Assembly (NCBI GenBank): GCA_030295235.1
Contig: AP026125.1
Location: forward strand, 372,001-436,000
DNA from: Fistulifera solaris
Taxonomy: Eukaryota
Reading direction: 5' to 3'
DNA: 64,000 bases
Of the stretch, positions 33,836 through 52,328 are shown piece by piece. The notes under the pieces were generated by a model. It did no database searches. It worked only from the letters and a program-made list of their open reading frames with translations, and was not told the DNA's origin. How positions within the stretch are numbered: position 1 is the first letter of the stretch; each line of letters starts with the position of its first letter. Position numbers and translations under genes: made by a program.

Positions 33836-35453
33836 ATGACTATCACCTCTAGAACCTTTGAAAGATTCGTCTCCTTACTCAAGGAGCGGAAAAAGACATG
33901 TGTCGTGGTAGAGCAATGCTGCGGCGGCTTAATTCAAGGTAAGCGTTTGCCGTATTGTTTGTATGAATCTCTCTTTCTTTGTTCCTTACACCTTTGTCTC
34001 GTCTTAGCTTCTATTCTAGCGCAACCGGGTGCTTCTGCGGTCTACTTTGGCGGCTCCGTATCGTACAACACCCGTAAAGCCAAACTTCTTCTTCTGAACA
34101 GCGATGAATTGCATCAATCATTGATTCAGAAACAATTCACGGACTCGACCGCCGGTTACATTCAATCGAAGCTGCACTGGACGGCGGAAACCTCCATTGC
34201 TTATTGCCAGGCAATGGGAACTGATTTTGCAATCGCCGAAGGTGGTGCCTCGGGTCCTACGTTTCGACCGAGTGATATGAAAACGGGGTTTGCCGTGATT
34301 TCGGTGGCGGGAAAAGGAGAGGATGGAACTATTTCGCTGTTAGGTCAAGACATCGTGCACTCTCCTACCAATAATCGGGAAGAGAATATGAGATATTTTG
34401 CGAATGCTGCTGCTAGTTTTGCGATTCACACGATCTGTAAGGGCAAAGACCCTTGCCTGCATCTAGACAAAATGGAGGTGAAATCGGCCGAGTCACTTGT
34501 CCTAGATCGGGCCACGCACGTTCGCACCGATGAGGCTAAGTTAGAAGAGCTAGAAAAAGCGGCACAATTCATTATTTTACAAGATTGCCGCTCGTTACTA
34601 GTACGATCGGATACTCCATCCACAAGACTAGCCTTCTTGACGCATGAAGAAGTGATCGCTATCGGAGGGAACCAACGCAAAACGTTTTTGGGGATTCGCT
34701 CGAAGGATACTCCTGTTTTCGCCGTCGACATTCTAGATGAGAAATTTCGCATTCCAAGAGGTACGGAGATTGTTGATACTCGAACAACAGCTCCGTTGCT
34801 TGACACGATCGAGAATGAACTGGCGCTCCACGCAACCGCTTACGCTGCATGGCAACGCCGAAATAAGTACTGTTCTTTGTGTGGCGGCACAACAACTGTG
34901 ATTGATGGCGGAACGTGCCTTCAGTGTAGTAATGTGCTGCAAAATCATGGCCGCGTCAAGACCCAAGCATGATTTGTGCTGTTTCTAGTAGAGACGGTGA
35001 AAGAATTCTGTTGGCACGCTCCCCACGCCATCCGGAAAAGTTGCACACAACGCTAGCTGGATTCGTGGAAGCTGGTGAAACGCTGGAGGCTGCTGTGGCA
35101 CGCGAGGCGTTTGAAGAAACAGGAGTCCGTATTGACGAGGGATCAGTCCAATATGTAGGTACGCAACCCTGGCCTTTTCCGCAGTCTTGCATGTTTGGCT
35201 TTTTAGCAACAGCCGATGAAAAACAGCCACTTCACATTGACGCCAACGAACTTCTTTCCGCACGATGGTTTACGAAAGAAGAAGTTGCGAAAGCAGCCAC
35301 AGTCGAAGGACCAACCATGCAAAAGGAGTTGCACTTGCAGCACTGGAGCGTGATCCCACGCTGCCCTTGCTAATACCTCCGAAAGGAGTTATTGCGCGTA
35401 GACTCATCGACCAATGGTTAACGGGCTCCTGGAAGTATTCGCGGTCCAACTAA
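33836..35453 (+). CDS. CinA/PncC-like domain fused to NudC-type NAD(H) pyrophosphatase; intron 33939-34007; frameshifts near 34935 and 35325
   Basis: PncC-like VVEQCCGGLI.ASI...PGASAVYFGGSVSYN..K. NudC features: zinc finger CSLCGG..C..C, WPRQDPSMI, Nudix box GFVEAGETLEAAVAREAFEETG and signature TQPWPFPQS. Confidence 0.85.
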
Positions 35454-35534
35454 TTATCTGTAAAGCAGTTCAAAATATAAAACATGTGAATTATATCAAT
35501 CGTATATGTACTAATAATCCGATGTGTCTCTTCT

Positions 35535-38301
35535 TTAACCCAAAGTGATTTTTGATTGAAGCGATGAAATGGCAATCGAAAATGCCTGAACAGCAGTAAG
35601 CGGGTGCTGAAAGTCCATTGTGAAAGAGTGTCGCCCTTGAATTCGTCCAAACTGAAGCAAAATGTTGTCTTGATCGTGGCGCTCGCAAAGCTGAAAATTT
35701 TTACACTAGCCACGCTCACCCTGCCGCCAAAATTCAAAACAAAAGAACCCAGTTCCATATTCCACCAGGGTGGACGATTCTGCAAAACCGTCAAACCCAT
35801 AGTATCGTTTGGATCGGAAACGTCATCTTGTTCCTGACCGTCATCAGCAATCGGATTTCGCTCTTGCGCATCAATTCTTTGCAGAATTTTACGCAAAGAA
35901 GAGAGCATACTGGCATCATCGCCCGCATCTGCTTCCTCTAAATAACTCTTCCAGTGGAGAGAGGACTCTGTAGTTACTTTCGGGATACACACATCCATTG
36001 TGCGAGGTCTACTGCCGAGGAGGTTCGCTGTGTAAGCTATAATTCCAATCTCTTCTTCTGACACATAAGTGCTGTTCGTTTCTTCTTTATCTTCTTTAGG
36101 TTCCGGAGTGCTAGCTGCGATGGCACGACGCTTCGACCTTCGAGCTTGGCCCGTCATGTCCTGACCAGGCGACCCAAAGAAAAAATGGCGATTCCTGGGT
36201 TCGTCTGCGGCCATATCTGTGCCCACATTAGCGCGACGAAGGGGAAAGTGGAATATAGAGCGCCGTGATGGTACATGATCTGTAGACGGACTAATATCCT
36301 CTCCAAAATTGCCATCCACTTTTTTTTGCGTGCGGTTTGATACGGCACGGTGAAAATATCTGAAACTCCGTCCCAATGAAATTGCTTTGCAATCGGCCCA
36401 AATATTGCACCCTTTTGTCATCTACACAAGCAACAGATCGAGGACGAACGCTGCTCAAACTATCAGAACCTTCTTCTTGATTGTTGACGGTTTCAAAGTG
36501 CGCATCGAGGTCTCCTTGTTCGGGCAAACAAATAAAATAGTTGTTTGCTCCTTTCTTCGAAATTATCGTCGGTACCATCCCTCTTACGTCCATCTGGGCG
36601 CGACTTCTTGCAACCAACAAAACTGTATCTTTGCGAATATAGTCCTCCTCAATCAAAGGCGCCAGTGGAGCAAACGGGCGATCTCGGATAAATAGCCGAT
36701 ACTCGTACGTGGGAAAGAAACGACCTTTAACGCTAACACCTTTGCCGCGTGACGGAGATTTGATGCGTTGAATTTCACATTGGACAACTCCTACAGCTTT
36801 CGGACATGGTTTTGTTAAGAAGTCCTGCAACGAAGACAGTCTGGGGACCGCAGTATGACCATCATGGTAGTGAATGCCGGCGGTAGAAGGAAAAATCTCG
36901 TCCCAGAAATCCAACAAGCACTCGTCGAAGGCAGCGTTATCATTTTTAGCAAGGAGCGCGTCTAACTTGCGTTCATAGCTATCGAAACGAATCTGAAGAT
37001 CATCCAACGACAAAGAGACTCCGGTAGCGAAATCAGGCATTCCCCGGAGCACAGTCGCGGCAGAATAGACCATTGTATCTACCAAATCAACAACTGGCTT
37101 CTCCTTGAATGGTGAGGGTTCAATCTGAGGCTCAAATAAGTCAACATGCGGCTGATTTCTAGCATCCCTCGCCAGACCGATAGCATGAGCAAACAATTGA
37201 GCATGGAGATCAGCATTTGGTATTCGCGGCTCAAACGGATTCTCATCCTCCTCTTCTCCTGCAACAGCCGGAAGAAGACCAAATTCCAGATGTGGCGATC
37301 GCGGTCTGAATATGCCTCTTTGTGTATTCCGTCTGCGTGTATTGTTGGAATGAAAGAAATCTACCGAAAGACTTACTGGAGCGTAAATAAAACCTCCGTC
37401 GTCAGCAGCGTACCGACCTGCCAAATGATGATCATACAAGTGCTGATGGATATTAAGTCTCAACTTTCTTTTGTGGGAAGGAATATCCTTTGGGGAATCG
37501 GCGTTCAAAGCCTTATACCAACTATCAACAACAGTCCGATGGGGTGAAAGGTCCCTTCTGCTTAATACGAGCCCTGGCTCAATTTTGCTTTCTTTGTGCA
37601 TCAAAAATAGAGCTTTTACTTCCAGATATGTCATGTCTCGCGATAAGCCTCCACTTTGTTCACGAAAACTTTCACGTTGCTCGTAAAAGGGTCAACTTGA
37701 AAAGAACTTTCATCATTTTCTTCCTCTTGCTTCATACGAATTTCTGTCTGCATTCTCCATAACATTGTATGATGCTCATGTCCGTACGAGCGTGGATACA
37801 CCGGTACGCCTTCCGAAATGTATAACGATATCAGCTCTCTAGCATCTTCCTGAAAGCCCAGCTTCCACGCCGTGGCGGCTTCTACTGCACATTTGAAGGC
37901 ATGCATCCGAACCCGTCGTACAATCGCTCGAGCTACACGGCAAGCTGCTTTGTCGGCTAAAGCAAATTCACTCCATTCGGAAGGATCCAGAAATGAGGCC
38001 ACCGCGTGGAGGGCGTCAATAGGTAAGCAGACGATTCCGCACGGGGCAGTGCCCATCGCCATTTCATCCGAACGTTCTGAATTATTCCCGATTTCCATAT
38101 CAGTATCTTCAATTTCTGGCGAAAAGATGTGCCCTTTTCTACGAGCGCCATCTGTTGCTCTGCAGTATCGTGAGCGTCCGGTAAAGATGATTCTTCTCTA
38201 TCCGAATTTACCGCAATCTGCTTCGCCGCAGTCTCAGAAAAAACCTCGCTTTCGGCAAGAAAGACCTCTTCATCCCCGTCGCCTGTGTTTGTTGTCTTCA
38301 T
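35535..38301 (-). CDS. Tubby-like protein with N-terminal F-box-like motif (several frameshifts)
   Basis: F-box-like CLPIDALHAVASFLDPSEWSEFA. Tubby domain motifs: VVQCEIQR, FFPTYEY, YLGRLQSNFIGTEFQIF, IAYTANLLGSRPRTM, LQNRPPWWN..SFVLNFGGRVSVASVK and FTMDFQHPLTAVQAFSIA (read across frames). Confidence 0.85.
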
Positions 38302-38569
38302 TTCAAATGATTCAAAATTTCGATCAACAATGTTAAACAAGACGATTCGCTCATCTACTTGATGGGATTGCCGCGCTGCTTCTTTCGTTGTTGACAGTCC
38401 TTTTCGATTTTCGATGCAAAAAGGCGTTGCAAATAAGTGCGGACGAAAAAAGCGCGCAAAGCAATACCGCATTGTATCGTCCCAACTGTATGACGAAACG
38501 ACGTACCGGTAATAAAAATGACGTCAGCTCCAGTGGAAACGGTACTGAGCGCAACTCACTGGTGTATGG

Positions 38570-38719
38570 ATCCGGATCAATACCCACATTTTTTTGCTCG
38601 TTGCTTGTACTATTCACGTGATCCTTCGAGTGCCGGCTTGTATTTTACATGCCCTTAACAGTGGCCACGGACAGTACAAATATTTCCAACGGACAAAAAA
38701 TGTGGGTATTGATCCGGAT
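38570..38719. mobile_element. MITE-like 150-bp element with 25-bp perfect terminal inverted repeats
   Basis: ATCCGGATCAATACCCACATTTTTT (38570-38594) is the exact reverse complement of AAAAAATGTGGGTATTGATCCGGAT (38695-38719), with imperfect inward extension. No clear TSD (possibly AT). Confidence 0.6.
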
Positions 38720-38936: not shown

Positions 38937-41261
38937 ATGTCTTCAACAGCATCTTTCGCGAGCGAAACATACTATCACGCCGTTTCAGACTCCGAGGAAA
39001 GTGCGGGGAGTTACAGTGACGATAACATCTTTCGCAAAGGAGATGCAATTGAAGTGATTTCTGGGAAATACAAAGGTCGAAGTGGGGTTGTTCGAAAGAC
39101 TCCCGTAAAGTGGATACCGCTACTCCTACATCCTACATCTACAGAAAGCAGCAAAGAAGTATGTCTGCCGCCAACTTCGGTGCGAAAAGTAAGAAGGAAC
39201 GCGGGGATGAATTATGAGGCGAACGTCGACGAAAACGTGTCCCCACCAAATCAGCCGTCGTCAAGAACGTCAGCGGCGCCATCCGAACCACAACCGGCCC
39301 CACCGAGCCACGATTCTCATACATCATCACAGGAGCGCAACGAACCTGCAACAGATTTTCAGGGCGAGACTTACTACAATGCGATATCAGACTCTGAGGG
39401 AAGTACGGTGTATGAGACTGACGATGACGACAACGACGAAACTGCTATTCGTCAAGGAGTTACAATTGAAGTGGTTGCTGGAAAATATAAAGGGCGAACT
39501 GGAGTAGTTACAAAGACCCCCGTAAAGTGGATACCGGTGCTGCTACATTCCACATCCACAGAAAGCAGCAAAGAAGCCTGCCTCCCTCCTGCTTCGGTGA
39601 GAAAAGTAAGAAACGCCACACGGAGCAACTATGATGAAGATGGTGACGAAACCATGTCTCCTCCGCCCCCACCCAGAACGTCAACAGTTCCACCAGTGGC
39701 CACGGCAAGCTACAGAATTGAAAACTCCCTGTTGTCACTGCCTGGATATCAACATGATCGATGCCTAATGGTTCCCGACGGTAAAGAGACAACCTTCGGC
39801 CCAACTCTGGCCTCTAAACTGTTTCACCTTGTAAATTATTCTTTTCCAATCAACAAAAACAGCCCGGCAATACCCACAGAATGGACCGAGTCGGGTCACA
39901 CTCTTCAATTAATCGCTACCAAAGTGCATGATCATAAGATAGGAAAGGAGAAACGGACTACCTACACACTCATGGCGCACTACGGCATTACTAAAGATGG
40001 GTTGCTCCAAACTTTGGAAGACTACGCAGCATTCGGCATGCTTCCTCCGAGGAAAGTGGCGTCGCGTTTGGAACTACTTTTTACACCCGCCATAAAGAAT
40101 CATCGCCAAATCCCAGCCATTTGCCACGATATTACAACGGATTACATCGAGATGCTCCCCGATGATGATTCTATTCACAGCGATGGGTGCGGATTCGTCC
40201 CCCGATGGGTCATTGAGAAGTTGTTTGGGCAGCTCACAGATGGCAAGCGGACTTTTGCGTTCATGGTACGCATTCTGGCCCCACAAATCGGTCTGGTCAA
40301 AGGGGTTCTGATGGAGAAACCCGGGATCGATAAGATTCAATTACATCCGACCATGATCAAGGTTCCACCCTCACAACGCAATCCCAATAGCAAGAAAGTG
40401 ATATTGCTAGCCAGTCGATCGTATCCCTCGAAAAATAATCTTCAAGAAGCGCGCCTCTTAAAGAAAGACAAAGAGCCATGCAAATCATTCAAGCCGAACA
40501 AACTCAAACACATGGCAACCAATGTTCTTGAGGCAAGTCAGATACCTAAAACAGTGATTGACAAGTACGTCAAAAACGCTACTTCAACAAACGGCTTGGA
40601 GCATGCCTTTGTTTTGGGTGCCTCGGATCCAACCAACGCCATTCCACCGGGCCACGTCTTTCTTTCTGGTTTCACTCATGACCTCCCCGATCATATCTTG
40701 GTAACACGGTTCCCTTGCACGGAATCGTCCGATCTTCTCAAGTTACCGCTGGTCAAGACGAAACCTCATGGAATGTCCGACGAGCAGTGGCAATTTCTGA
40801 CCAAGTTAGCCTTTGGTGCCATCCTCTTTGGAAATCCTGGAAACGGGCGTGGACCTTTGCCTCCGATGATTGCGAACGGAGATTTAGATGGTGACTTGTA
40901 CATGGTTTTGTGGAATAAGGGCTTGGGATCGTATGTACCCGTAACAGACACAACGTTGTTTTGTCCTGCAGCGAAGACCGAAACCAAGTTGAATGACGAA
41001 TGGAACCCCAACTGGTTGACCGACGCGTACGGTCTGATGTCTGACATCAATGCCTTATATTTACGGCAAACACTGATTGGTAAGCTGCACACTTTGTGGA
41101 AGAAAAGCGACGATCACGCCAAGTGTCATGCCTTTGGGAGGGCTTACAAGGAAGCAATCGACATTGGCAAACATGGCGGGAAAGTGCCATTGCCACGAGC
41201 ATTCTGGTCGGATCTAAAATTGGAATATCATGTTTTACTGGAGGATGCAAGATACTCATAA
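38937..41261 (+). CDS. Cellular (RDR/QDE-1 type) RNA-dependent RNA polymerase, short, intronless, with duplicated KOW-like N-terminal module
   Basis: KVASRLELLFT, HSDGCGF, AFMVRI..GLVKGVL, IQLHPTMIK, VLGASDPTNAIPPGHVF, LVTRFPC, catalytic NGDLDGDLYMVLW (DLDGD at 40881-40895), IGKLHTLW and AIDIGKHG. Confidence 0.9.
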   Translation: MSSTASFASETYYHAVSDSEESAGSYSDDNIFRKGDAIEVISGKYKGRSGVVRKTPVKWIPLLLHPTSTESSKEVCLPPTSVRKVRRNAGMNYEANVDENVSPPNQPSSRTSAAPSEPQPAPPSHDSHTSSQERNEPATDFQGETYYNAISDSEGSTVYETDDDDNDETAIRQGVTIEVVAGKYKGRTGVVTKTPVKWIPVLLHSTSTESSKEACLPPASVRKVRNATRSNYDEDGDETMSPPPPPRTSTVPPVATASYRIENSLLSLPGYQHDRCLMVPDGKETTFGPTLASKLFHLVNYSFPINKNSPAIPTEWTESGHTLQLIATKVHDHKIGKEKRTTYTLMAHYGITKDGLLQTLEDYAAFGMLPPRKVASRLELLFTPAIKNHRQIPAICHDITTDYIEMLPDDDSIHSDGCGFVPRWVIEKLFGQLTDGKRTFAFMVRILAPQIGLVKGVLMEKPGIDKIQLHPTMIKVPPSQRNPNSKKVILLASRSYPSKNNLQEARLLKKDKEPCKSFKPNKLKHMATNVLEASQIPKTVIDKYVKNATSTNGLEHAFVLGASDPTNAIPPGHVFLSGFTHDLPDHILVTRFPCTESSDLLKLPLVKTKPHGMSDEQWQFLTKLAFGAILFGNPGNGRGPLPPMIANGDLDGDLYMVLWNKGLGSYVPVTDTTLFCPAAKTETKLNDEWNPNWLTDAYGLMSDINALYLRQTLIGKLHTLWKKSDDHAKCHAFGRAYKEAIDIGKHGGKVPLPRAFWSDLKLEYHVLLEDARYS
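38952..39680 (+). repeat. Internal direct duplication in the RdRP 5' region (copies ~38952-39250 and ~39355-39670)
   Basis: Protein copies ETYYHAVSDSE..KGDAIEVISGKYKGRSGVVRKTPVKWIPLLLHPTSTESSKEVCLPPTSVRKVR and ETYYNAISDSE..QGVTIEVVAGKYKGRTGVVTKTPVKWIPVLLHSTSTESSKEACLPPASVRKVR. Shared DNA blocks CCCGTAAAGTGGATACCG and ACAGAAAGCAGCAAAGAAG. Confidence 0.92.
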
Positions 41262-44345: not shown

Positions 44346-44558
44346 TCCGAGCTTTGACAATCTGCTGCAATAAAGCAACTGCATTTCGGTTCATAAAAAA
44401 ATCATCATCACAGGAGACTTATAAAAGGTAGCTGCATGAAGCGATCTTTATACGAGTTCTTTCTTGCAAGCCCACAAACACATTTACTTCGTCCGAAGCG
44501 ATATTCTTCGCTCAAACTCTTCGTTTGCCTTCTTCTCTTCTCGACAACTTCTTCCGCA

Positions 44559-45086
44559 ATGACAACCTTCAGTCGCCGCCCCCAACTTTTGGTGAAAAAA
44601 CTTTCCGAGCACGCGCAATTGCCCCAACAGGGTTCCGCTGTAGCGGCCGGCTTTGATTTGTTCAGCGCCGAAGACAAGATGTTGCCCGCCGGTCAACGCG
44701 GCTTGGTCAAGACGGATCTCTCCATTGCGTGTCCCGAAGGCACGTACGGTCGCATTGCTCCCCGCTCGGGCTTGGCCTTGAAGCACGGCATTGATGTCGG
44801 AGCGGGTGTCATTGATGCGGATTATCGAGGTCCGGTCGGTATTCTTTTGTTCAATCTCAGTGACAAAGACTTTGAAATCAAACGCGGCGATCGCATTGCG
44901 CAACTCATCTTGGAACAGATTGTGATTCCCGAAATTCAGGAAGTGGAAGATTTGAGTGAAACAACGCGCGGTGCGGGTGGTTTCGGATCGACGGGGGTTC
45001 GAGATCCGCCGGCGTTGAGTCCTATGGAAATCAAGAAGCAACGTACCATCTCGCCGCAGCCTCCGGTCGCGGAAAAGCCCAACTAA
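44559..45086 (+). CDS. dut: Trimeric dUTPase (an upstream in-frame ATG at 44436 could add a presequence)
   Basis: All five motifs: [33 protein letters not shown] and [10 protein letters not shown]. Confidence 0.95.
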
Positions 45087-45198
45087 GAAAAACTTTGTTC
45101 ACCGACGAACTGATTTAAGTAATGACTAAAATAGTTTATGACATTGAATCAATCGTCTATTTTATTATTACGAAATTATTCTGTTGCGTCATTCTCGC

Positions 45199-46292
45199 TC
45201 ATGATAAACCCGACATGTTCCTCAAGTATTCCTCCTTTTCCAAAAGATTCGTAATCATCTCAATCAGTACATGTCGAGGTTCTAAACCATAGTGCGGCTT
45301 CATGTCGCCCCGAATTCGTTCTCCCGGCCGCGAACGCGCTAACACAGCACCGCCCCAGTTCACGTAATTGAATCGATTAGGAAGTCCGTTCAGTGTATTG
45401 TTGACACGAACTTGATCCAATTTATTCATTGTCACATTATTCAATGTAGAAGTCTTGTTGATGATATGTTCCTGTTGTTCGGAATATCCACTGGTTCTCC
45501 ATATCACCACCTTTCCGGTCGTGATCTGAAGCTCATTCGTGAGCTCGACCAAATCGGAAACCATTTCGACGAGTGTTCGGTTTTGAAGACCTTTACGGCA
45601 AGCCTGCGGTCGAATCACATCCCATATTCCAATGGCAACGATAATGACATCGATATCTGCAGTTATGTTGGCCCGTCCTTCCAGTTCCGTCTGCAAGAAG
45701 CGCTCCACGTCCGTATGACAAACGGCTTTCACGTAAATATGCTCTCCCTCTTCCTCGGATGTAAAATTCACCGTTCGACAGTTGTTGGGACGAAAATTGG
45801 CTTCGATCCATTTGTTGCACTCGTGAGGACCTTTTTAGCCGCATCAATCAAGTTAGGTGATGACAATTCATCCGCAAGGAAGCTGGAGTTTTTCCAGTCC
45901 AGTAATGCGTACAAATTCATGGCAGTTCGTCGACCGGTGGAATCTCCGACCCATAGGATTCTTTTTCCGCTGTAAAATTGTCGCAACTCGTTGGGTGTAT
46001 GGTATTTCCAGCCAGTGGGTGGAACCCATGTATTTCCGATCCAGGTTCCGGTCATGGTTCGGGGTGATGGAGGGTCATGCATCGCATTCGCGGTCGAGTG
46101 TAAAGAAGCATCGGTTTGATCCGTCTCATTGAAGAGCGTTTTTGATAGCATACTCCGACTTTCAGTTTGAAGAAGATTTTGGACCCATTCGAAAGGTATG
46201 AGGGCCAACAACGAAGCCACAAGTAAAAGCATCAAGGTGCGCCTTTGTCGAGGCCGCAAAACATCTCGCAAGTACCTATTCTCGTCAAACAT
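45199..46292 (-). CDS. SGNH/GDS-type acyl-esterase or O-acetyltransferase-like type II membrane protein (frameshift near 45780-45830)
   Basis: N-terminal TM, ILWVGDSTGRR, DVIIVAIGIWD, VVIWRTSG and C-terminal GDMKPHYG. Confidence 0.75.
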
Positions 46293-50447: not shown

Positions 50448-52328
50448 TTACAAAAGGTGTCGACGATTCCATGTTCGAAGAACTTCATGCTCGGCAAAAT
50501 AGGCAGCCTTGCGGCGCTCGTAATCCCCCTCCATATCGTAGTTTCATTTCTCGAAGCTTCCCCAGTGTGCGCTCCGAATCATCGTACTCCTCCTTTAATG
50601 GCGTTGTATTCGGATGAATCGAAAGGAAGATGTTCACCAAGGCAGTAGTACTAACGGAGGACACAAACTTGTTTTTCTACCTCTTGGCCACAGTCCGTAT
50701 ATCCGCTCTGTCCCTTATCTACGGCGGTAGCATCTAAAGCCCACCCGGTAGCACCATCGATGCATTCTAGAGAACCATTGGTAATCGATGTAATTGTGGG
50801 CAACTCTTCGGTACCGAGCCACCACGCAAACGATAAGCTGGAGTGGAAACGCACATCCTGGCCGGGATTGTCCGGATCCGTTTCGACAACGCCCTCCTCA
50901 TCGAGATAGACGGATGTACCCATTATCACGGGATGCTTGACTGTTATTTTGTCAATAATTGTACCGTCGTTATTGCATACGCTGCTGATATTCGATCCAT
51001 TGTCGTTCCGGATTTGCTTGGCTCGATGATCGCATTTGGATCGTTTCAGTGCATACGACCCTACCGCACGACAACATACGGCGCGTCGACAGGTGATCGC
51101 ACTCAGTTTTCTACCCACCGTCAACGTTTCTGGAACAATGCTTTTTTCTAAAAACGATGAAAGTAGAGAACCCTGCCACCCTAATATGTTCCATCTCAGC
51201 AACTTGTCGGAACAAGTGTGCAAAGAACCTTTTCCTGAAAACAGTGTCGTTGTGCCGGCGGGGCACCAATTTGTTTCACAGTTCGACGGCCAGGATTGTT
51301 GCTTCGGACTCAGTAATTCCATCTTTCTCTTTTCCAAAGCGATTTGCTCTTCTGAGGAGATTACGTGTCCTTTGTCCTCTTTCAGTAACAGAGAAAACTC
51401 TCCTTGCGAGATGGCGTGTCCGGGTATAGCTTCGTGATGACAAGTCGGCCACTCATCGGGGCCTAAATCGTCTCGAAACACCTCTTTTCGACAAGTTACA
51501 AAACGCTTCAGCACGGCATTCCCACAGGGAGCCGATGAAGTATAGCAGTGCAACGTGATGTGCGGGTTCAGTTTGTACAATGGAAGTTTCGTCGTAGTAT
51601 TATTGTCAGCGTCTTCCGTGAATTGAGACTTTTCAAGAATTACCATGCCGAACGGGTCTTTCTGAGCATCTGGCTTTTTTACTTTCCTATCGTTCAGGAT
51701 CTGAAGAGATAAATAACGGCGCAAGGCCCTCCTCGCCAGGACTTCGGCATGACAATCACGGACTCGATCCCCATACTGCGACGAAGCGCTTTCGCCCGCC
51801 AGTAGGGAATTCGAAAGAAACTTGGTACCCACTCCCATGGCAATGACCCGCAATTCCTTGGTCAAGCCATGATGTGCCACAATGGTCGCTACGCACGTCT
51901 GTTTTTGCTCATGGCGGAAGCTCTCGGGGACGACCATGTGATAGTGATCGACGGAAAGTTGTGCAATGCGATCCGCAAACGCGCAGGTCGATGTGCGGCG
52001 CTTTTCGGCATGACGAACCGCGCGACGTTGATCGCCTTGTTCCTTGCCTTGCATCGAAAGGAAGTTAACCTGGGTATTTCGATATCGTTTTAGGGGAGAC
52101 GAGTCCTTTTTGACAAAAATGAGACGCCGACAAATGTGTCGCGGTCGGCAGTTCCCGGGACTGGATTTGAGTTATAAGTCGAAATAAGTCAGACCACTTA
52201 ACTTGTTCCTGGATAGCGTCCCTCAGTGCTGCTACGACATGGTGGGATCGATAGGGCGACTTTTTTCGCATCAACGCGACATGATGATGCGATGTTGTTG
52301 TTGTCCTCGTCGCCGTCTCACGATGCAT
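50448..52328 (-). CDS. ADAT1/ADAR-family adenosine deaminase domain protein, no dsRBD seen (frameshifts near 52070, 50660 and 50525)
   Basis: VIAMGVGTK, DCHAEVLARR, SSAPCGNA and TCSDKLLRWNILGWQGSLLS. The C-terminus ..YERRK..WNRRHLL is read across frames. Confidence 0.85.

Follow-up and report, generated by a model that had tools for sequence, protein, structure and literature searches.

The window (64,000 nucleotides of DNA from the diatom Fistulifera solaris) codes for a protein that is probably an active cellular RNA-dependent RNA polymerase (RdRP) of the two-barrel type, from a protist-specific, core-only subfamily that uses KOW domains as targeting adaptors. All that is retained is a catalytic core with a short helical tail; the C-terminal head and the N-terminal domains of canonical enzymes are absent. 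Their place is taken by two KOW barrels on long disordered tethers, which are acidic and rich in Pro and Ser. We propose that the barrels deliver this pared-down enzyme to its template, most likely RNA that has not yet left the transcription or chromatin machinery. Copying of this RNA into a complementary strand would yield double-stranded RNA (dsRNA), which would feed Dicer/Argonaute silencing in the diatom. The features of the gene are listed in Table 1.

Table 1. Features of the RdRP-KOW gene (positions in the window)
Feature	Residues	Position	Strand	Basis and remarks
Complete intronless ORF (P0001)	774 aa + stop	38937..41261	+	start (MSS...) and C-terminal end common to relatives P0003 and P0004
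Acidic motif 1, ...ETYYHAVSDSEES	8-22	38958..39002	+	predicted to be disordered, pLDDT < 50
KOW domain 1, predicted five-stranded barrel	~30-88	39024..39200	+	Pfam KOW stretch aa 34-54; pLDDT 85-95; matched by KOW domains of Spt5/NusG in Foldseek
Internal tandem duplication, copies 39031-39247 and 39448-39664		39031..39664	+	217 nt, 77% identity
Linker 1, predicted disordered, Pro/Ser-rich	89-141	39201..39359	+	pLDDT < 50
Acidic motif 2, ...ETYYNAISDSEGS	142-156	39360..39404	+	sequence repeat of motif 1
KOW domain 2, predicted five-stranded barrel	~170-228	39444..39620	+	second Pfam KOW stretch; KOW5_SPT5 aa 174-206; family KOW profile 49.3 bits
Linker 2, predicted disordered	229-289	39621..39803	+	mostly pLDDT < 60
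RdRP core, headless: two double-psi barrels and C-terminal helical segment	290-774	39804..41258	+	Pfam RdRP 1.3e-25; structure matches
Catalytic loop DLDGD	649-653	40881..40895	+	D651 invariant; G648, D649, L650, G652 and D653 at least 90% conserved

The gene and its polymerase core

The reading frame begins with ATG, has no internal stop codon and is intact over 2,322 nt. Its GC content is similar to that of its neighbours. The locus is an ordinary chromosomal gene. Its full-length architecture is conserved in P0003 and P0004 (67-68% identity), and orthologue-like proteins with 67-88% identity retain the architecture as a whole.

A few side observations were made on this locus and its relatives. 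The close pair P0005/P0016 (85-88% identical) has only 34 residues after the catalytic loop. Reads from run X1 cover 30 of 30 bins, including intergenic DNA; they are thus DNA-like and have no bearing on expression. Neither do the reads from runs X2 and X3, which fall into 10 of 30 bins (35.2-38.4 kb and 44.4-45.2 kb), outside the ORF. The first 30 of 80 metagenome loci showed no poly(A) tail at their ends, which is likewise uninformative on expression.

The Pfam RdRP model (PF05183) matches the protein with 90.6 bits (cut-off 23.8; E-value 1.3e-25) in two stretches, the best of which (aa 557-754) corresponds to profile positions 346-544 of 582. With the same model, the canonical RdRP P0165, used as a control, reaches 571 bits in one stretch; the window protein is thus, as judged by sequence, a divergent member of the eukaryotic cellular RdRPs. 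The AlphaFold model of the full protein has a pLDDT of 81, and that of the core exceeds 90 over most of aa 290-774. Conservation was scored on alignments of 148 and 124 sequences. G561, G578, R591, P593 and D651 are invariant in both; conservation of at least 90% is seen for GCGF (417-420), Q443, R445, G452, K455 and G456, DPT (564-566), C594 and D599, and G648 to D653. By profile and by predicted fold, the catalytic part is a eukaryotic-type two-barrel RdRP (of the QDE-1/RDR kind). Hints concerning the clade are in conflict: the family profile favours RDR2 over QDE-1, and the nearest ESM Atlas cluster is named as a plant "RDR4".

Beyond the catalytic loop, the protein continues for only 121 residues. 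The superposition (VIA) stops where the last ~195-265 residues of RDR2 and QDE-1 begin, with the structural alignment ending at residue ~938 of 1133 in RDR2 and at residue ~1137 in QDE-1. A tail of 100-150 residues beyond the catalytic loop was found in 108 of 154 relatives; the short tail is a family trait. The C-terminal head of canonical RDRs was not found in the window protein, as assessed by length and structure alone. An earlier note, made from the DNA letters, had described an unbroken and intronless 774-aa ORF with a DLDGD loop and ~120 aa beyond it, and had taken it for a stripped-down RdRP, possibly of a distinct branch. This description is supported as regards the ORF, the shortness of the enzyme and the distinct branch. 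The note had also considered that a downstream exon might add a normal head. Relatives from independent assemblies stop at the same point, and therefore no such exon is to be expected.

Tandem KOW domains and acidic motifs

The internal duplication is a direct DNA repeat at the N-terminal end of the gene, with its copies 417 nt apart. Between aa 28-90 and aa 167-229, 44 of 63 residues are identical. A comparison of the two KOW copies (dS 0.62, dN 0.18, dN/dS 0.29) indicates that both are under purifying selection.

Pfam KOW (PF00467) is matched in two stretches with 30.5 bits, which is above the curated cut-off of 22.3. None of the Spt5-specific KOW sub-models reaches its cut-off (23.2, 18.2 and 15.5 bits vs. 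27-28.9). In the AlphaFold model, the strands of the first barrel are at 37-40, 49-52, 60-64, 73-77 and 82-84, those of the second at 176-179, 188-191, 199-203, 212-216 and 221-223 (pLDDT 85-95). When modelled alone, KOW 1 has a pLDDT of 86.5 and, among the 50 matches listed, hits only chains from Spt5, NusG or the ribosome in the PDB (TM 0.52-0.74). Taken together in the full model, the two barrels also match the KOW2-KOW3 and KOW6-KOW7 pairs of Spt5 (Foldseek). Basic residues follow each barrel (...SVRKVRR and ...SVRKVRN). KOW domains bind RNA, DNA or proteins, depending on context.

NusG and Spt5 grip the polymerase with their NGN domain. No NGN domain was detected among the five Pfam families with an E-value of up to 10 for the full protein, and the residues preceding KOW 1 are predicted to be disordered. 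The likeness to NusG/Spt5 is thus limited to the KOW module. With NGN missing, the protein is not an Spt5/NusG homologue, and any contact with a polymerase is hypothetical.

The two acidic motifs share 10 of their 15 residues. The pattern [FYH][FY].A[VI]SD occurs seven times, in 5 of the 159 family proteins, and shuffled sequences lead to an expectation of 0.03. This count is far above chance. The conserved portion of the motif is ...A[VI]SDSE.

The earlier note had assumed two ~100-aa copies. This is roughly right: the KOW part recurs after 139 aa and the acidic motif after 134 aa. Its placement of an acidic motif ahead of each repeat was correct, and its reading of the repeats as KOW/SH3 barrels agrees with both the profile score and the predicted fold. 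Of the parallel that it drew to NusG/Spt5 elongation factors, the KOW module stands and the remainder does not, as the NGN domain is absent. Its ideas on function (RNA binding or processivity, a silencing or antiviral branch, a different template preference) are hypotheses.

The protein family, its adaptor domains and their possible roles

The family comprises 236 clusters at an E-value of at most 1e-30. A word-indexed search with the family profile yielded only three further proteins (P0164-P0166). A KOW profile trained on the family detects 133 units in 70 of 159 proteins, with one to four per protein (shuffled and reversed controls: at most 7.1 bits). The units are mostly N-terminal to the core but are C-terminal in P0008, P0026, P0027 and P0050. 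Other proteins carry alternative fusions: Tudor (5), chromo (3), HA (2), PHD (1), AP2 (1) and RNase H (1). The latter, P0063, has the core fused to an RNase H1-type hybrid-binding domain and an RNase H. In a tree of the core, KOW is concentrated in two supported clades (33 of 41 and 34 of 54 rows, compared to 3 of 52 rows elsewhere). This is a FastTree reconstruction in which deep branches are often weak (47 of 145 inner branches have a support below 80). Fusions to chromatin readers are mostly found in clades other than that of the window protein.

These data show a family-wide association of KOW with a minimal RdRP core. The chromatin, DNA and hybrid-binding readers fit the concept of interchangeable targeting modules on a single core; extending the meaning of the chromatin readers to KOW is an analogy. 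As far as pattern scans reach, the family seems to be confined to eukaryotes. There were no relatives among 106 pattern matches in viral contigs, nor among 20 in prokaryotes (smaller alignment A4); both scans used a single peptide pattern, which makes them weak evidence of absence.

For the proposed silencing enzyme, we infer polymerase activity, an RNA template, ligands of the KOW domains and a link to small RNAs. Caution applies to the type of template (RNA or DNA), because QDE-1 also uses DNA templates and the core resembles phage DNA-dependent RNA polymerases.

Alternatively, the KOW barrels might be built-in clamps that hold the template or product and replace the head and N-terminal domains by conferring affinity or processivity, with no role in recruitment. 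We regard this as possible but do not favour it. The segments on either side of the catalytic domain of RDR2 and QDE-1 are missing from the core, and one to four KOW copies at either end of the core would suit a generic binding module. The basic residues after each barrel are in line with this, as is the fact that solved KOW structures matching the barrels include ribosomal proteins. Ribosomal KOW proteins bind rRNA. However, tethers of ~50-60 disordered residues would be an unusual geometry for a processivity clamp, and the histone and DNA readers found at the same position in sister clades speak for targeting rather than for a grip on the substrate.

Within the proposal that KOW domains act as targeting adaptors, a more specific and quite tentative idea concerns transcription. 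In diatoms and many other marine protists, the Spt5-type KOW domains might anchor the headless enzyme to the RNA polymerase II elongation complex or to its nascent RNA, at sites normally used by the KOW domains of Spt5. From nascent or stalled transcripts, dsRNA would then be made in situ, while the Tudor, chromo and PHD versions would read chromatin marks. Such a system would parallel the hand-over from Pol IV to RDR2 in plants but would have evolved independently.

The acidic aromatic motifs allow for a different kind of targeting. The FFAT consensus of VAP ligands consists of two aromatic residues, then an acidic residue and alanine, embedded in an acidic tract. If the motifs were FFAT-like, they could tether the enzyme to VAP proteins of the ER, so that dsRNA would be made at membranes, for example against RNA viruses or from membrane-bound mRNAs. 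The motifs are in sequence predicted to be disordered, as is usual for short linear motifs. In acidic surroundings, [FY][FY]DA is enriched in the family, with 11 occurrences in 9 of 159 proteins (expected: 1.9; maximum in 300 shuffles: 8), and P0008 (...FFDAVSD...) links the FFDA form to ...YYHAVSDSE... in the window protein. Nevertheless, we consider ER docking unlikely. The window motifs match the consensus weakly, having H or N at the acidic position; among close relatives, this position is H, N or Q, and the first aromatic position is Y, H, D or S. It is the ...A[VI]SDSE portion that is conserved.

It is similarly improbable that the enzyme functions outside RNA silencing, acting on single-stranded DNA or in priming, DNA-damage-induced RNA synthesis or non-templated extension. 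QDE-1 has been crystallised with DNA templates, according to the entry titles of 7y7r, 7y7s and 7y7t. The phage DNA-dependent RNA polymerases are near in structure (Z 16.6), and the hybrid-binding and RNase H domains of P0063 would suit such a role. That RdRPs need not serve RNAi is argued from Branchiostoma in passages of Pinzon et al. 2019. On the other hand, the closest matches in both sequence and structure are silencing RdRPs, and the Tudor, chromo and PHD partners fit chromatin silencing. Moreover, diatoms possess Dicer, Argonaute and functional RNA silencing, as stated in passages of De Riso et al. 2009.

That the ORF is a functionless copy, decaying or never expressed (e.g., one homeologue of an allodiploid genome), is highly improbable given its intact frame, the presence of every invariant catalytic residue, the dN/dS of 0.29 between the KOW copies and the full-length architecture of P0003 and P0004, even though the early end of P0005/P0016 suggests that some assembly may contain one truncated copy of the gene.

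Among the three core RNA-silencing enzymes, it is the RdRPs about which least is known outside plants, fungi and nematodes. Literature searches for KOW together with RdRP, for Fistulifera solaris together with RdRP and for the small-RNA machinery of diatoms returned no paper describing the KOW-RdRP architecture and, for Fistulifera solaris, none on an RdRP. The proteins reported here define a large, previously undescribed protist subfamily in which a minimal catalytic core is combined with swappable adaptor domains. The adaptors would provide testable handles on template choice by RdRPs, and the small size of the core (~485 residues) is convenient for biochemistry and structure work. If KOW does couple the enzyme to transcription, polymerase-to-RdRP channelling would have arisen twice, independently.

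Comparison with known systems

In diatoms, RdRPs have so far been listed only as "putative", from weak Pfam hits. For Pt2_45417, Tp3_8685 and Tp3_5028, a weak Pfam RdRP hit is all that has been reported (E-values of 6e-08 and 0.00015 in the supplementary table of De Riso et al. 2009). They are likened to the window family by description, not by sequence. KOW is not mentioned in passages of that paper or in two of its three supplementary files.

The KOW domains of Spt5 and NusG (4ytl, 2do3, 3p8b, 1m1g, and Spt5 in Pol II elongation complexes) match the first barrel, modelled alone, with a TM of 0.65-0.74, an rmsd of ~2-2.6 A and 22-30% identity. The tandem barrels resemble the arrangement of KOW2-KOW3 and KOW6-KOW7 in Spt5. 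Ribosomal KOW proteins match about as well as Spt5/NusG.

For the core, the next-best structural neighbours after RDR2 and QDE-1 are phage single-subunit, DNA-dependent RNA polymerases (P74 gp62, 8f5m; P32 gp64, 8f72; P23-45 gp96, 8h2m). These have a compact, headless two-barrel core of similar size and align over 338-349 residues with 11-13% identity (Z 16.6).

QDE-1 from Neurospora (2j7n, 7y7p) and Thielavia (5fsw) has the best Foldseek E-value (3.6e-17). Model residues 256-774 superpose on chain residues 414-1137 (VIA; Z 18.6-18.9), and those beyond ~1137 are unmatched. Identity is 13-18%, and QDE-1 has no KOW domain. Its match to the family profile (1.4e-7) is weaker than that of RDR2.

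In structure, nothing matches the core better than plant RDR2 (7w82, 7eu0, 7roz; for maize RDR2, Z 21.8, 420 residues, rmsd 3.6), with model residues 262-761 superposed on chain residues 292-933 (VIA). RDR2 is also the best profile-to-sequence match in the PDB, with E-values from 2.9e-15 to 3.9e-16. RDR2 and the window protein share the DLDGD loop and the two-barrel catalytic domain at a sequence identity of 17-18%. However, ~370 N-terminal and ~195 C-terminal (head) residues of RDR2 have no counterpart in the window protein. RDR2 is devoid of KOW domains and, according to PDB entry titles, gains access to its template through docking on Pol IV.

Architecture of the polymerase and its N-terminal repeats

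The gene is read, in the standard code, as one ORF with an ATG start. Its GC content (0.46-0.47) resembles that found elsewhere in the window (0.42-0.50). The earlier note had described an unbroken ORF with an intact catalytic loop, about 120 aa beyond it and a duplicated N-terminal unit with a preceding acidic motif. All of this holds: DLDGD is intact, 121 residues follow to the C-terminal end, and the 5' part contains a direct DNA repeat (217 nt, 77% identical, 417 nt apart). Compared codon by codon, the repeat copies share 44 of 63 amino acid positions, and the preceding acidic motifs share 10 of 15. Both KOW copies have been under purifying selection since their duplication, because dN/dS is 0.29 (dN 0.18) at a dS of 0.62.

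Features of the RdRP gene, its product and its surroundings
Feature	Position	Remark
Window ORF	38937-41261 (+)	774 aa
Direct DNA repeat	39031-39247; 39448-39664
Acidic motifs	aa 8-22; 142-156	precede the KOW copies
Translated repeat copies	aa 28-90; 167-229
Five-stranded barrels	aa ~30-88; ~170-228	AlphaFold2, pLDDT 85-95
Disordered stretches	aa 1-26; 89-167; 229-285	AlphaFold2
Confident core	aa 290-774	AlphaFold2
DLDGD	aa 649-653	catalytic loop
Next ORF	41574	after 312 nt of intergenic DNA 3' of the stop codon
Element with inverted repeats	38570-38719	150 bp; lies about 217 bp 5' of the start codon
A_deamin ORF	50654-52054 (-)	about 9 kb from the RdRP gene
First region covered by X2 and X3	35203-38410	holds Tub-family genes on the minus strand, read as three overlapping ORFs
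Second region covered by X2 and X3	44426-45227

The Pfam RdRP model (PF05183) matches the protein with E 1.3e-25 and 90.6 bits (cut-off 23.8). The canonical RdRP P0165, used as control, reaches 571 bits in one stretch (positions 1-580 of 582), which marks the window protein as a strongly divergent RdRP member. Searching the PDB with the sequence alone retrieved no RdRP, only weak KOW matches to ribosomal protein L24 and Spt5 (E 0.017-0.028). When a profile of 124 family members was used, maize RDR2 (E 3.9e-16), Arabidopsis RDR2 (2.9e-15) and QDE-1 (1.4e-7) were detected.

The attribution of the repeats to KOW is borne out by Pfam (PF00467, 30.5 bits against a cut-off of 22.3, in two stretches) and by the AlphaFold2 model, in which they form the predicted barrels. 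None of the Spt5-specific KOW sub-models reached its cut-off, and an NGN-type family was absent from the hits even at E <= 10. The model, built with a 124-row alignment, has a mean pLDDT of 81.3 and a pTM of 0.71. In a Foldseek search against the PDB, it has 56 matches at E <= 1e-3, among them QDE-1 (3.6e-17), maize RDR2 (7e-14) and phage P74 gp62 (1.4e-8). The N-terminal barrel pair matches Spt5 KOW2-KOW3 (3.7e-6), KOW6-KOW7 and many Spt5 chains from Pol II complexes. Folded alone (64 residues, 13-row alignment, pLDDT 86.5), barrel 1 is predicted to be KOW/SH3-like: the 50 PDB matches listed (TM 0.52-0.74) all come from Spt5, NusG or ribosome chains. Spt5 KOW2-KOW3 ranks first (E 6.9e-4, rmsd 2.6, 30% identity) and is the only one of them below E 1e-3, which is not surprising for a domain of this small size.

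The modelled core corresponds to the canonical RdRP catalytic region, because VIA-align superposes it on maize RDR2 (Z 21.8; 420 residues, rmsd 3.6; model 262-761 on chain 292-933), QDE-1 (Z 18.6-18.9; 256-774 on 414-1137) and Arabidopsis RDR2 (Z 17.3; 263-759 on 382-937). Phage gp62/gp64 follow with Z 16.6, and cellular RNA polymerase large subunits with about 9.5. In contrast to the window protein, RDR2 has about 370 additional N-terminal and about 195 additional C-terminal residues, and QDE-1 continues past about residue 1137. The absent C-terminal part is the head domain of QDE-1 and RDR2.

Relatives, partner domains and the short tail

An exhaustive phmmer search of 1.84 billion representatives returned 630 relatives at E <= 1e-3 (439 at <= 1e-10, 236 at <= 1e-30), of which the best 150 were taken. 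GAX09840.1 from Fistulifera solaris (442 aa) belongs to the protein's own 90% cluster, in keeping with the diatom origin supposed earlier, and two members are from the green alga Cymbomonas tetramitiformis; the remaining relatives derive from metagenome or assembly records. Two metagenome contigs encode distant RdRP relatives (L027, E 2e-10; L028, 8e-10). Both end in G4T4 repeats; L028 (4,229 bp) also starts with C4A4 repeats and looks like a complete ciliate-type nanochromosome.

All 154 relatives scanned with Pfam (E <= 0.01 for 59 of them, E <= 0.001 for batches of 60 and 35) have the RdRP domain. Above the curated cut-offs, 22 have a KOW-type domain, five a Tudor (P0084, P0094, P0113, P0117, P0128), three a chromo (P0047, P0079, P0100), two an HA (P0095, P0103) and one a PHD domain (P0012); P0063 combines an N-terminal RNase H1-type hybrid-binding domain with RNase H. 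AP2 occurs in P0164, found after the 154. Predicted chromatin, DNA or RNA:DNA-hybrid readers are fused to the same head-less core in other branches. Because Pfam overlooks KOW copies visible by eye (e.g. in P0006 and P0007), a family KOW profile was trained in three rounds, in which shuffled and reversed sequences scored no higher than 7.1, 4.1 and 3.8 bits, respectively. The profile detects 133 units, spread over 70 of the 159 proteins at one to four in each, and none in the Tudor and chromo proteins among these. A unit is C-terminal to the core in P0008, P0026, P0027 and P0050.

A FastTree core tree (149 rows; 355 alignment columns for aa 290-664, after removal of two short rows) was rooted with two canonical-like proteins. 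KOW occurs in 33/41 rows of the window protein's clade (support 99), 34/54 of a second clade (support 96), 3/23 of the clade holding Tudor, PHD and AP2 members and 0/29 elsewhere, all counts being depressed by fragments without N-termini. Deep branches are mostly weakly supported, as is the separate clade with tails of about 300 residues (83).

The absence of a long C-terminal region, also claimed earlier, recurs in the family: 100-150 residues follow the loop in 108/154 relatives, more than 150 in 36, and fewer than 100 in five, which are cut short; the loop pattern was not found in another five. Independently sourced relatives end within about ten residues of a common conserved C-terminal segment. 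Annotation error does not account for the short tail. The closest relatives, P0005 (561 aa) and P0016 (680 aa), are 85-88% identical and end at the same residue, 34 past the loop; they may represent a second copy that has been truncated, or an artefact of the gene model.

G561, G578, R591, P593 and D651 are invariant in both alignments examined (148 and 124 sequences). At least 90% conserved are GCGF 417-420, Q443, R445, G452, K455, G456, DPT 564-566, C594, D599, G648-D653 and K745. The family differs from canonical P0165 in three respects: GCGF takes the place of DG.G, five residues are inserted ahead of the first barrel's conserved glycine-lysine-glycine, and a T-R-x-P-C...D segment stands against proline-cysteine-leucine-histidine-proline-glycine-aspartate.

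Genomic surroundings

The RdRP gene lies among genes for a Tub family protein, CinA, a glycosyltransferase, ankyrin repeats and an A_deamin protein, which by their predicted products are ordinary eukaryotic genes. Pattern scans gave 106 matches in viral contigs and 20 in prokaryotic genomes, none of them a relative. Look-alikes in the ESM Atlas (plant RDR, bacterial and phage clusters; scores 0.89-0.91, TM 0.35-0.52) are leads only.

The A_deamin ORF (adenosine-deaminase (editase) domain, E 8.4e-33) probably encodes a tRNA or RNA adenosine deaminase. The upstream element has perfect 25-nt terminal inverted repeats, which occur at a single location within the window. In the DNA-like sequencing run X1, the bin of the element is covered at a depth of 78.6, with a peak of 191 at one site, against about 15-30 in the flanks, and contigs branch at both edges; it resembles a MITE-type element present in multiple copies. 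Coverage by runs X2 and X3 is confined to two regions of the 12 kb examined, and this patchiness suggests that both runs are RNA-like.

Proposed role and relation to known polymerases

The RdRP core is intact and under selection, and in a large family it is associated with KOW modules of varying number and position. That the window protein combines a divergent RdRP core with KOW modules is very probable. Since KOW number and position vary and other branches substitute chromatin, DNA or hybrid readers, the simplest explanation for the family is a shared catalytic engine fitted with exchangeable targeting adaptors. The KOW barrels, on flexible tethers of roughly 50-60 residues, would carry the enzyme to its template, and the dsRNA made would feed the diatom silencing pathway. 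We consider this adaptor role in silencing plausible, if tentative. That the barrels instead clamp nucleic acid directly seems rather unlikely.

A minor alternative concerns the acidic motifs. The strict form found in the window protein occurs seven times in 5/159 proteins (0.03 expected). A related form, aromatic-aromatic-aspartate-alanine within acidic tracts, is enriched: nine of the 159 carry 11 instances in total (1.9 expected; no more than 8 in any of 300 shuffles), and P0008 unites both forms. The motif resembles the FFAT motif, which binds VAP proteins of the endoplasmic reticulum; the window protein and close relatives of it match only in a degenerate way. Motifs of the related form lie in disordered parts of P0008, P0009, P0026, P0028, P0031, P0032 and P0085.

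A silencing pathway does exist in diatoms, with gene silencing, Dicer and Argonaute described by De Riso 2009 and transposon-associated small RNAs by Rogato 2014. The window protein is already in public databases: UniRef calls a cluster relative 'RNA-dependent RNA polymerase', and precomputed Pfam strings give KOW and RdRP. No paper describing the KOW-RdRP fusion, the head-less family or the adaptor repertoire was found, and the analyses of Aravind 2011 and 2014 may overlap. Diatom RdRPs are listed only as putative in the literature, as far as it was accessible. Aravind and colleagues described RdRP cognates in bacteria and phages, as well as a cyanobacterial fusion of RdRP with RNase H.
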